Shown: positions 7,595 to 8,127 of the stretch, one piece after another
How positions within the stretch are numbered: position 1 is the stretch's first letter
Layout: the number at the start of each line of letters is the position of its first letter
From: an uncultured Lachnospiraceae bacterium
GTDB taxonomy: Bacteria; Bacillota; Clostridia; TANB77; CAG-508
Assembly: GCA_964489885.1 (NCBI GenBank)
Contig: CAZAZX010000002.1
Location: forward strand, 24,531-88,530
Reading direction: 5' to 3'
DNA: 64,000 bases
Notes under the pieces: generated by a model
What the model was told of the DNA's origin: nothing
Database searches by the model: none
The model's input: the letters and a program-made list of their open reading frames with translations, nothing else
Program-made: the position numbers and the translations under genes

Positions 7595-7698
7595 CAAACC
7601 ATTGAAAAAATTGGCTTTTTGGTGTATAATATAAACAAATATGTGTTATGCATATAGCCCGTTTACTTTATAATTATTACTGAATGGGGGTATAGAAA

Positions 7699-8064
7699 AT
7701 GAAAAAACTGAAGAAGATGGTGGCAATGCTCATGGTGGCGATTTTCGCTATCATGATTGCACCGGCAACATCACAGGTTGAAGCGGCTGAACTGTCAACG
7801 TTTTCAGCAAGCCAGGAACTGTCCAATCATAATAAAGATTGGCAAAAAAGGCGCCAGGACCGTCGAAACCGTCGGAACCGTCGTGAGTATGAATCCGCTC
7901 GTGCGTATTCTCTTGGAATCCGTGATGGGTTCTATGACGGATACAACGGACTGATTTACGGAAATTCTTTCCGTTATTTCAGCAGCCGTCACGAACAGGA
8001 AGAGTACTATGAAGGCTACATCTATGGGTACAATGATGGCGCCTTCCAACGTGGCTTAAATTAA
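7699..8064 (+). CDS. Small secreted protein (signal peptide ...SQVEA|AELS; Arg-rich and Tyr/Gly-rich), lying in a compositionally foreign GC-rich island
   Basis: Abrupt G+C jump confined to the gene and its terminator. Strong RBS. The gene uses the in-frame CGG codon. Confidence 0.6.
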   Translation: MKKLKKMVAMLMVAIFAIMIAPATSQVEAAELSTFSASQELSNHNKDWQKRRQDRRNRRNRREYESARAYSLGIRDGFYDGYNGLIYGNSFRYFSSRHEQEEYYEGYIYGYNDGAFQRGLN

Positions 8065-8082
8065 AAAGGTTTTTTCATTAAA

Positions 8083-8112
8083 AAGGGGGCACCAAAATGG
8101 GTGCCTCCTTTA
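8083..8112 (+). terminator. GC-rich hairpin terminator of the 7699 island gene
   Basis: gggggcacc-aaaatg-ggtgcctcc followed by a T-rich run. Confidence 0.5.
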
Positions 8113-8127
8113 ATTGTGCGGAAACTA

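Follow-up and report, generated by a model that had tools for sequence, protein, structure and literature searches.

In an uncultured, AT-rich (~29% GC), spore-forming Clostridia species of the gut or rumen, a single GC-rich orphan gene between yunB and rpsU (hereafter island 1) is best explained, at a probability of roughly 55%, as an anciently transferred and now fixed gene that is kept GC-rich by selection on a compact mRNA fold. Compositional outliers are routinely taken as recent horizontal gene transfer (HGT); island 1 is an outlier that is fixed, constrained and allelically diverse, with its excess GC in predicted RNA stems. It lies in a stretch of 64,000 nt (the window) that holds a second GC-rich orphan gene at a distance of ~4 kb (island 2).

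A complete GC-rich gene between yunB and rpsU

In windows of 200 nt, GC climbs from 0.295 (7500-7699) to 0.48 (7700-7999) and returns to 0.32-0.36 past 8000. The gene itself (GC 0.464) lies in surroundings of ~24-29% GC and is a ~4.5 sd outlier among 300-nt windows across the 64 kb (mean 0.29, sd 0.042), which bears out the sharp jump in G+C described in a first-pass annotation of this DNA. GC exceeds 0.45 at just three loci of the window, namely island 1, island 2, which is of a similar kind, and a site at ~59.3 kb that is merely an intragenic (PEPT)n repeat. The host-atypical codon usage seen in the annotation (CGT, CGG, GCG, CCG) is also real. GC3 reaches 0.484 against 0.163 in the long ORFs of the window, GC1 and GC2 are likewise elevated, and CTG codons are employed besides GCG and CCG. 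None of the 13 Arg codons is AGA, which makes up 77% of host Arg codons; nine are CGT, and CGA, CGC, CGG and AGG occur once each. The enrichment is restricted to the CDS and the terminator stem, whereas the promoter and the 5'UTR are AT-rich and host-like.

The region 7602-8111 is a complete monocistronic gene with its own promoter, ribosome-binding site and hairpin terminator (Table 1). The promoter starts 8 nt past the yunB stop codon and is unchanged across all alleles, a Shine-Dalgarno (SD) run, GGGGG, lies at 7686-7690, 8 nt upstream of the ATG, and the hairpin at 8082-8111 (-25.7 kcal/mol, z -4.9) confirms the separate GC-rich terminator proposed for the gene. This terminator may be bidirectional, judging by a minus-strand U-run that is better than the plus-strand one. 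The upstream neighbour is YunB (PF09560, 2.4e-29; TIGR02832, 5.7e-47) and the downstream neighbour S21 (PF01165, 1.1e-24), as expected from the placement between yunB and rpsU given in the annotation. No recombinase was found within several kb of the gene, and no flanking direct repeats, nearby tRNA gene or attC-like or att-like feature. The earlier statement on missing recombinases and flanking repeats holds for recombinases and direct repeats; apart from a perfect 11-nt inverted repeat (7698-7708 / 8069-8079), itself part of the transcript, no repeat brackets the gene.

Table 1 Features of islands 1 and 2 with their positions in the window.
Feature	Position	Strand	Details and basis
Sigma-A-type promoter	7602..7630	+	TTGAAA, 17-nt spacer, TATAAT; 11/12 consensus
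Predicted 5'UTR, AT-rich	7637..7698	+	start site inferred from -10 box; sequence and fold
Long-range helix, 5' arm (predicted)	7698..7709	+	A AUG AAA AAA CU; includes start codon
Orphan CDS, 121 aa (island 1)	7699..8064	+	GC 0.464, GC3 0.484, dN/dS 0.11 between alleles
Sec-type signal peptide, residues 1-29	7699..7785	+	inspection of translation
Strong hairpin, ~12-15 bp	7727..7761	+	in signal-peptide coding region; predicted fold
Arg-rich block RRQDRRNRRNRRE, residues 50-62	7846..7884	+	translation; partly from 9-nt tandem repeat 7852-7883
Tyr/Gly-rich C-terminal part	7894..8061	+	two GxxxGxxxG-type repeats, AYSLGIRDGFYDGYNG and YYEGYIYGYNDGAFQRG; no family match
Long-range helix, 3' arm (predicted)	8067..8079	+	AGGUUUUUUCAUU; 3'UTR, immediately past stop codon
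GC-rich terminator hairpin	8082..8111	.	12-bp stem, 6-nt loop; A-tract 5', T-tract 3'
Island 2 terminator, 11-bp stem	12034..12060	.	bidirectional; common to convergent spo0E-like gene
Orphan gene, 172 aa, signal-peptide-like N-terminus (island 2)	12078..12596	-	GC 0.47, GC3 0.45, dN/dS 0.10
Island 2 promoter	12643..12671	-	TTGATT, 17-nt spacer, TATAAT; kept between alleles

All three protein features named in the annotation, a Sec signal peptide, an RRQDRRNRRNRRE block and a Tyr/Gly-rich tail, are visible in the translation. The signal peptide has the n-h-c layout, with MKKLKK followed by MVAMLMVAIFAIMIA (15 hydrophobic residues in the h-region) and by PATSQVEA, after which the chain continues with AE; it has no Cys for a lipobox and carries an AXA-type cleavage site. 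Signal peptidase I is predicted to cut after VEA29, which would leave a mature protein of 92 aa with a pI of 8.9, and these 92 residues include 11 Tyr, 9 Gly and 13 Arg. Four of the 15 variable sites of island 1 fall in the Arg-rich block, where site 7860 occurs as three alleles, and the 9-nt tandem repeat holds part of the variation of the island. The AF2 model consists of a single long helix and a low-confidence tail (pLDDT 68), that of the island 2 protein reaches a pLDDT of 54, and because of this low confidence the role of the protein is a guess. The pre-protein could be exported by Sec and cleaved after Ala29, and the basic mature protein then released or kept tethered outside the cell. 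Binding of anionic polymers through the Arg-rich helix and self-association through the two Tyr/Gly GxxxG repeats are conceivable. The predicted exported protein is new and specific to this uncultured species of the herbivore gut.

Occurrence, alleles and purifying selection

Island 1 is an orphan with no detectable relatives in the databases searched. Only self-hits were returned from 5.8 billion protein clusters, from an exhaustive phmmer (HMMER) search of 1.84 billion representatives, and from phages, plasmids, IMG/VR viral and JGI contigs; Pfam, NCBIfam, PHROGs, PADLOC and PDB gave nothing usable, even at permissive E-values on the mature parts. The Bacillales-like hits that had been anticipated for the 121-aa protein did not appear, nor did a match to anything else. 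The gene is missing from all other lineages sampled. In the genomes whose YunB comes closest (66-77% identity), yunB is followed by other genes; in both GTDB matches and in YunB clusters of 74-77% identity these are tRNAs, a TetR gene or a gene of 290 aa on the minus strand. With YunB identity no higher than 77% and a rearranged gene order, these relatives are too far off to provide a clean empty site. An apparent 75-aa gene after yunB in L019 proved to be a spurious ORF over minus-strand tRNA genes, and a possible filled/empty pair in a sister species (L015/L016 versus L017) concerns a different element, ~1.8 kb long, that has terminal inverted repeats and carries a prepilin-like gene. A look-up for positions 34-1227 of the window returned nothing.

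Within its own species the gene is fixed, being present at the site in each sampled genome: it occupies the identical position in all 13 independent metagenome contigs that bear the species' yunB. These contigs come from more than 10 samples and, by their name styles, from several assembly pipelines, and their junctions are identical, which answers the concern about chimerism raised in the annotation. At least three alleles exist, with GC of 0.464-0.467. Between them, dS is 0.096 and dN 0.011 (dN/dS ~0.11), with seven synonymous against three non-synonymous changes and an intact frame in every allele; judged by these substitutions, the ORF is under purifying selection. Sister strains carry homologues of like GC at this very position, which the annotation itself had named as a sign of a long-resident gene, and the recent acquisition that it suggested is not supported.

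Predicted structure of the island mRNAs

Folding was compared with that of synonymous-codon shuffles, which preserve the protein and the codons, and dinucleotide shuffles served as a second null. The coding RNA of island 1 is predicted to be far more base-paired than such recodings of the same protein, with synonymous-shuffle z-scores of -3.7 to -4.8 across its alleles. The corresponding mean is -0.40 in 33 host genes (sd 1.05, min -3.3) and -0.85 in 20 E. coli genes of GC 0.40-0.56 (sd 0.90, min -2.6). Dinucleotide-shuffle z-scores are -4.3 for island 1 and -7.0 for island 2, against -0.8 and -1.2 in controls, and folding of the antisense strand is less favourable than that of the sense strand by 13 and 35 kcal/mol, respectively. 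GC3 in predicted stems and loops is 0.63 and 0.24 in island 1 and 0.53 and 0.26 in island 2, a contrast that is partly circular because MFE prediction favours G/C stems. Shuffles folded identically provide a partial control for this circularity, and loop GC falls below them (island 1, GC3 z -3.35; island 2, GC3 z -1.9 and all positions z -3.4). The concentration of GC in mRNA stems had been overlooked in the first-pass annotation. It does not hold that every GC-richer orphan gene is structured, as a 145-aa gene (L023, 16594-17031) has a z of only -0.9.

The CDS of island 1 holds several near-perfect stems, the hairpin in the signal-peptide region among them. In addition, the start codon is predicted to pair with the 3'UTR in a 12-bp helix, which is present in both the MFE and the centroid structures and has P ~1.0 in two alleles. 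All others of the 58 ORFs compared have a shorter start/3'-end complement; z-scores for the duplex of the translation-initiation region (TIR) and the 3' end are nonetheless modest, at -2.3 and -2.8, and a value of -2.4 occurs in one ordinary gene. The helix would occlude the start codon only, with the SD left out of pairing. Stability of the L009 allele is retained better than in 99 of 100 random synonymous-drift replicates. Among the few and similar alleles, five SNPs of island 1 fall on unpaired positions, four keep a predicted pair and four break one, and per-pair covariation is absent from the equally few and similar alleles available for both islands. Rfam gave no match at the gathering threshold (best permissive score 26 bits against a cut-off of 57), and none even at E up to 5. 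The only promoter-like site that could serve an antisense RNA at island 1 (8180-8153, minus strand) has 9/12 matches, in a region where 3.9 such sites are expected by chance.

Island 2 resembles island 1 in being a GC-rich orphan whose product has an Arg-rich helix behind a signal-peptide-like N-terminus, in its own sigma-A promoter and hairpin terminator, in its extreme mRNA structure and in forming a polymorphism hotspot between conserved flanks. Large databases again returned self-hits only. Its mRNA structure has z-scores of -6.3 to -7.0, and -3.7 to -6.6 across alleles against synonymous shuffles. The alleles differ at up to 13% of nucleotides between flanks that are ~100% identical, with a dS of 0.57, a dN of 0.054, ~47 synonymous against ~21 non-synonymous changes, and an unchanged GC3 (0.45 and 0.46). 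Alifold finds 2 compensatory pairs, ~24 one-sided pairs that are kept and ~20 that are broken (covariation term +0.93). Island 2 differs from island 1 in its preferred Arg and Leu codons, in adjoining a T4SS gene cluster and in a weaker TIR/3' helix, which is not predicted in the L011 allele, where stability is no better than under random drift (18/100). Homology between the two genes was rejected since their BLASTP match (E 5e-4) covers the signal peptide region only.

Origin and maintenance of the GC-rich composition

Horizontal transfer from a GC-richer donor is the most likely source of the gene, at a time remote enough for it to have since reached fixation and split into several alleles. 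As neither donor nor homologue was found, transfer is argued from composition and phyletic absence, which make a foreign origin plausible. In AT-rich genomes, patches of high GC are a hallmark of RNA structure under selection (PMC6429828), and the concentration of GC in mRNA stems gives a reason besides recency for the gene to have stayed GC-rich, namely selection on the stems of a compact fold. This fold would probably stabilise the transcript against AU-targeting RNA decay, and the start-codon/3'UTR helix would probably restrict translation initiation on completed transcripts, so that it might, for example, be confined to co-transcriptional rounds. Island 2 would follow the same design. Perhaps the two unrelated orphan genes even represent an as yet undescribed class of mRNAs, self-locking or dual-function, that encode small exported proteins and are GC-rich through selected start-codon-occluding folds, a tentative idea that we consider more apt to fail than to hold.

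The annotation had proposed recent HGT or an inserted cassette. The strongly atypical composition and codon usage, the self-contained unit and the absence from the other lineages sampled are in line with this, whereas recency and the cassette are not supported, because the gene is fixed, has no donor, carries a native-looking promoter and shows no mobility features. A cassette is also contradicted by GC enrichment that is confined to the CDS and terminator stem, with a host-like promoter and 5'UTR and no att-type site. An integron gene cassette was rejected on its own promoter, a simple 12-bp terminator stem and the lack of an integrase and of a cassette array.

Within the Lawrence and Ochman framework, horizontally acquired orphan genes (genomic islets) undergo amelioration. 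Island 1 is like such islets a single gene of atypical GC and codon usage, without homologues, confined to one lineage and placed at a synteny breakpoint beside conserved genes. It differs from them in being fixed and allelically diverse rather than sporadic, in having no donor, no mobility signature and a native-like promoter, and in GC that has remained chiefly in RNA stems, with loops close to the composition of the host, a pattern suggestive of selective maintenance and not just of recency. A plain recent acquisition, with a foreign single-gene fragment at yunB-rpsU that has not yet ameliorated and whose structure and polymorphism are incidental, would account for the GC3 of 0.48 against 0.16, the missing AGA codons, the raised GC1 and GC2 and the absence of the gene from relatives. 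We nevertheless consider it unlikely. The gene is fixed in 13/13 contigs as three alleles with a dS of ~0.1, island 2 has kept its GC3 at a dS of 0.57, promoter and 5'UTR are native-like, and very large databases contain no donor. The structure, moreover, exceeds what composition gives and is sense-biased, and would have to be explained twice, in unrelated genes.

Dual-function RNAs that also encode a protein include S. aureus RNAIII (hld) and B. subtilis SR1 (SR1P). With RNAIII, island 1 shares a structured monocistronic transcript of ~0.5 kb, a predicted 5'-3' closure and a small, predicted exported product, but its ORF takes up most of the transcript, and regulatory targets or conserved unpaired seed regions are not identifiable. 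That the ~480-nt transcript is mainly a structured regulatory or stable RNA which also codes for protein would fit this highly structured, closed mRNA with its strong promoter and terminator, and its GC-rich patch within an AT-rich genome (PMC6429828). This is quite improbable, as the ORF fills 366 of ~480 nt under strong constraint, no Rfam match or covariation was found in the searches above, and no target can be proposed. Structured RNAs found in GC-rich intergenic regions (PMC6429828) likewise combine a sharp GC-rich patch with strong, sense-biased predicted structure; island 1 differs from them as a constrained coding sequence (dN/dS ~0.1), not an intergenic one, with no Rfam family and no covariation.

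A type I toxin-like module, in which the mRNA of a membrane-active protein is held inert through 5'-3' fold-back, possibly with an antisense RNA, is less probable still. Type I toxins usually have fewer than 60 aa, and in hok/Sok the toxin mRNA is kept translationally inert by fold-back pairing of this kind. Island 1 resembles hok/Sok mRNAs in a compact, very stable predicted mRNA whose 3' end is predicted (P ~1) to pair with the translation-initiation region, and in a hydrophobic N-terminus; a good minus-strand U-run at the hairpin and the weak promoter-like site at 8180-8153 could serve an antisense RNA. However, the product has 121 aa, with a long polar domain behind a canonical cleavable Sec signal, and matches no toxin family, pairing covers the start codon only and spares the SD, and that minus-strand site is at chance level. 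The gene is single-copy with no PADLOC hits and no prophage linkage, and the fold-back of island 2 is not conserved in the L011 allele. Finally, a chimeric MAG, a metagenome misassembly or a non-coding structured RNA misread as an ORF, which the abrupt composition change, the MAG origin and the GC-rich, strongly structured segment might suggest, is effectively refuted by the same junctions in at least 13 contigs from >10 samples and several pipelines (by contig-name style), by mostly synonymous third-position substitutions (7:3 in island 1; ~47:21 in island 2), and by an SD site, a signal peptide and a frame intact in all alleles.

If selection on mRNA structure does hold the CDS of island 1 20 GC points above its genome, dating of transfers by amelioration would carry a bias for genes of this kind. 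GC-rich coding mini-islands in AT-rich genomes would then be a searchable signature of structured mRNAs, besides that of recent HGT, and the GC-versus-AT contrast used for finding ncRNAs could also reveal structured mRNAs. Islands 1 and 2 would likewise be tractable models of how mRNA architecture, through stability and start-codon occlusion, governs the amount of a small secreted protein that an AT-rich anaerobe makes.

Polymorphism peaks locally at both islands. Simple AT-biased decay was rejected as the cause of the higher divergence in islands than in flanks, since its estimated effect is ~2-4-fold, too small for the ~13% versus <0.5% seen at island 2. Targeted hypermutation was rejected too, including a diversity-generating retroelement target, which would show adenine-specific, mostly non-synonymous variation near a reverse transcriptase (RT) and a template repeat; most changes are synonymous transitions, and an RT is absent from the neighbouring genes scanned. 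SNPs are patchy outside the islands too, at 4776-5130 in L003 and at 10418-10571 in L011, which tempers any claim that the islands are unique sites of hypermutation.

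Composition, layout and fixation of island 1

The GC content of the window is 29.0% (300-nt windows: mean 0.29, sd 0.042). In 200-nt windows around the gene at 7699..8064 it remains at 0.23-0.30 until 7699, rises to 0.48 at 7700-7999, and passes through 0.43 at 7900-8099 to 0.32-0.36 thereafter. The feature that the first-pass annotation had described, a sharp GC rise with atypical codon usage over a single gene between yunB and rpsU (island 1), is real and statistically strong. The ORF has a GC of 0.464 (0.525, 0.385 and 0.484 by codon position); the long ORFs of the window have means of 0.41, 0.31 and 0.16. 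Its 13 Arg codons include no AGA, the codon behind 77% of Arg in host genes; nine are CGT, and CTG, GCG and CCG codons also occur. The neighbours, the domains of the product and the GC-rich hairpin behind the gene were likewise as annotated (see table). GC enrichment is restricted to the CDS and the terminator stem, and the promoter and 5'UTR are AT-rich and host-like. On the minus strand the hairpin has the better U-run (CCCUUUUUAAUG; plus strand, UUUAAUUG), and a terminator scan calls it on the minus strand only; no minus-strand gene lies upstream.

GC at or above the level of island 1 occurs at only three loci in the 64 kb: island 1, a second orphan gene about 4 kb away (island 2), and a repeat at ~59.3 kb. 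The latter was rejected as another island, being merely an intragenic (PEPT/PEPTT)n repeat in the gene of a 323-aa putative surface protein.

Features of the islands and of other loci in the window
Feature	Position	Strand	Details
SipL and LysM ORFs	5324-6869		404 aa and 123-135 aa, separate and overlapping
YunB and ribosomal protein S21 genes			flank island 1
Island 1 promoter	7602-7630		TTGAAA-17-TATAAT; 11/12 consensus positions; 8 nt past yunB stop
Island 1 Shine-Dalgarno			GGGGG; 8 nt upstream of ATG
Island 1 gene	7699..8064	+	121 aa; signal peptide, RRQDRRNRRNRRE block, Tyr/Gly-rich tail (from translation)
Island 1 terminator hairpin	8082-8111		17 nt past stop codon; -25.7 kcal/mol, z -4.9
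rpsU promoter	8128-8157		own, perfect
Island 2 gene	12078..12596	-	172 aa; GC3 0.45; whole island 12078-12671
Island 2 promoter			TTGATT-17-TATAAT; own
Island 2 terminator			bidirectional; common to spo0E-like gene
T4SS cluster	12811-27579		Firmicute-type
tRNA-Gly, tRNA-Cys	29532-29729
Giant surface proteins	30118-58671		1703, 1583 and 4567 aa
Putative surface protein gene	58808-59779		323 aa
(PEPT/PEPTT)n repeat	59290-59610		third GC peak

Bacillales-like relatives had been expected from a protein search in case of horizontal transfer, but only self-matches were returned: the protein itself from 1.84 billion representatives searched exhaustively with phmmer, and its own cluster from 5.8 billion clusters. 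Pfam, NCBIfam, PHROGs, PADLOC and PDB had no match to the protein, either complete or as the mature part alone. A tblastn search of phage and plasmid sequences gave nothing, nor did pattern scans of IMG/VR and of JGI metagenome contigs. Island 1 is a new orphan family, which by itself is ordinary. The gene lies 105 nt downstream of yunB in every sufficiently long contig, and no empty yunB-rpsU site was seen among the 13 contigs with the species' YunB. The species stands apart from its relatives: the YunB proteins of the closest GTDB genomes are 66-68% identical and the closest in a large database 74-77%. As the genes past yunB differ in all nearest relatives (a TetR gene, tRNAs or another gene), the junction is a synteny breakpoint without an orthologous empty site for dating the gain. 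Seven synonymous and three non-synonymous changes between alleles (dS 0.096, dN 0.011, ratio 0.11) indicate that the frame is under purifying selection.

The island 1 gene is genuine, fixed, confined to a single species, constrained and compositionally foreign, and it lies on an unusually structured mRNA. Plain recent horizontal acquisition, or a recently inserted cassette, as first proposed, is only partly right: it would fit the foreign composition, but its recent date is at odds with fixation in the species. A horizontal gain from a GC-richer source, one that was not recent, appears the better reading. The product would be exported by Sec and be active outside the cell. An Arg-rich helix and Tyr/Gly GxxxG repeats could perhaps serve anionic-polymer binding and self-association, although this is a guess, as AF2 models are poor.

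Predicted mRNA structure and start-codon occlusion

For the predicted island 1 transcript (7637-8116) the folding energy is -166 kcal/mol, whereas its dinucleotide shuffles reach -124 +/- 6 (z -6.9). As this null mixes AT-rich and GC-rich parts, synonymous codons were also shuffled within the CDS, which holds protein, codon usage and GC constant. The resulting z was -3.7 to -4.8 for island 1 alleles and -3.7 to -6.6 for island 2 alleles, with none of 100-120 shuffles matching the islands' stability; 33 ordinary window genes gave a mean of -0.40 (sd 1.05, min -3.3) and 20 E. coli genes of GC 0.40-0.56 a mean of -0.85 (sd 0.90, min -2.6). CDS-only dinucleotide-preserving shuffles gave z -4.3 for island 1 and -7.0 for island 2 (two controls: -0.8, -1.2). 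Overall, the mRNA structure of island 2 has a z of about -6.5 to -7, and its centroid (-198.9) nearly equals the MFE (-199.2), which suggests a single well-defined predicted fold. The sense strand is more stable than its complement by 13 kcal/mol in island 1 and 35 kcal/mol in island 2, with more extreme z, a bias that RNA-level selection would give (G-U pairs) but strand-neutral DNA palindromes would not.

GC3 is 0.63 (island 1) and 0.53 (island 2) in predicted stems and 0.24 and 0.26 in loops, with a host value of 0.16. Loop GC3 lies below that of shuffles folded alike (z -3.35 and -1.9), as does island 2 loop GC over all positions (z -3.4). A GC-rich patch in an AT-rich genome is a well-established sign of an RNA under selection for its structure (PMC6429828); in the islands this sign lands on constrained coding sequence. 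Selection on stems may have kept GC high, which would explain why loops are near host composition and why GC3 is alike (0.45, 0.46) in two island 2 alleles as divergent as dS 0.57 and dN 0.054, despite an AT-mutating genome.

All island RNA structures are predictions. No per-pair covariation was seen in the alleles of either island. Relative to predicted pairs, island 1 SNPs are unpaired in five cases, pair-preserving in four and pair-breaking in four, and in a three-allele alifold of island 2, 2 pairs are compensatory, ~24 are one-sided and kept, and ~20 are broken. Of 100 replicates of random synonymous drift, 99 are less stable than the island 1 allele of same-species contig L009; for island 2, the L011 allele cannot be told apart from drift (18/100), yet has z -3.7. 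Less probably, the excess structure could belong to a dual-function RNA, acting beyond its coding role; no Rfam family matches the islands at E up to 5. About 5 kb past the window end, L023 of the same species carries two GC-richer genes with a bidirectional GC-rich terminator between them (16594-17316). Its 145-aa gene (GC3 0.36, hydrophobic N-terminus, no Pfam match) has no excess mRNA structure (z -0.9), and thus such structure is not automatic in GC-richer orphans; the convergent 74-aa ORF (GC3 0.37) does have it (z -4.4).

Island 1 contains an 11-nt perfect inverted repeat (12 bp once folded) that pairs A-AUG-AAAAAACU (7698-7709) with AGGUUUUUUCAUU (8067-8079), just past the stop codon. 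The helix is present in MFE and centroid, with a pairing probability of ~1.0 in the window and L009 alleles, and this pairing of start with 3' end is the longest among 58 window ORFs (runners-up: 9 and 8 nt). Against shuffled partners its duplex energy stands out only moderately (z -2.3, rank 3 of 43); the top rank goes to island 2 (-21.3 kcal/mol, z -2.8). The statistic needs caution, since an ordinary gene at 28650-29411 reaches a comparable -14.5 kcal/mol and z -2.4. Start-codon occlusion is a well-founded prediction for island 1; for island 2 it is only a possibility, as the window allele forms the helix with a probability of 0.4-0.7 and the prediction for the L011 allele lacks it. A hok-like locked toxin mRNA, an unlikely reading, would share the occluded start of island 1; the island 1 product matches no toxin family. 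We favour a fold that stabilises the island 1 transcript and would limit initiation on the completed mRNA.

Allelic variation within the islands

All differences of 14 independent contigs were placed on window coordinates. The L009/L010 allele of island 1 has 13 differences, every one inside 7845-8084, and the L028 allele five, all inside 7845-7929; position 7860 has three alleles, and four variable sites sit in a 9-nt tandem repeat. Mapped contigs have no variable sites in 6014-7698 or 8113-8837, giving 15/414 in island 1 versus 0/2410 in the flanks (Fisher 2.5e-13; P = 0.003 for clustering under the assumption of only three independent events). The island 2 allele of L011/L012 has differences at 68/519 CDS positions and in the 5'UTR. 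The divergent tract runs from just past the -10 box through the stop codon, nucleotide difference reaches 13% between alleles, and flanks are ~100% identical, with promoter, terminator and spo0E side essentially unchanged. L013/L014 differ in a 45-nt patch within the gene. The alleles are real haplotypes, since each turns up in more than one sample.

The islands are enriched in old or imported allelic variation, clearly so for island 2 and moderately for island 1. We do not infer a dedicated mutator from this, and a DGR-type process was rejected because the changes are mostly synonymous transitions. That two independent orphan genes, each a diversity hotspot, combine high GC with extreme mRNA structure specific to the sense strand is unusual and can be tested. 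An artefact, in the form of the misassembly that the first-pass annotation had raised, is contradicted by contigs of many samples that encode the identical protein, or variants 1-3 residues off, at the same place between yunB and rpsU and whose name styles point to several different assembly pipelines; island 1 is neither a misassembly nor a sporadic gene.

The enrichment carries two caveats: the tandem repeat that holds four of island 1's variable sites, and patchy SNPs outside the islands as well (47 in 4776-5130 of L003, 35 in 10418-10571 of L011), as expected in a recombining population. These patches diverge by 13-23% in contigs otherwise ~99.7% identical, and both fall at contig ends; either recombination imported them from a diverged lineage, or these ends are strain-chimeric.

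Surroundings of island 2 and other loci

In the island 2 product, an Arg-rich helix comes after the signal-peptide-like N-terminus. Database searches yield four near-identical clusters only, without a family match, and similarity to island 1 is confined to the signal-peptide region (E 5e-4, single pairwise test). The gene directly precedes a T4SS cluster with five TrbC/VirB2-like pilin paralogues, PrgI, a VirB4-like ATPase, an 800-aa protein with a pilin domain and a 1056-aa C39-like hydrolase. Two tRNA genes and giant surface proteins follow, the last with SpaA, VWA and faint dockerin matches in L023. Possibly the region is an integrated element for conjugation or adhesion.

The separate SipL and LysM ORFs are found in all contigs of the species, and sister lineages have one fused protein of 514-515 aa; the arrangement is a conserved split or frameshift in a sporulation gene. 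In the sister-species contigs L015 (about 12520-14290) and L016, a ~1.8-kb insertion separates rplT from the RNase J leader. In L015 it is bounded by terminal inverted repeats of ~200 nt. The insertion carries a prepilin-like gene, broken by a stop codon and highly divergent between the two loci; L017, also of the sister species, has a clean empty site.
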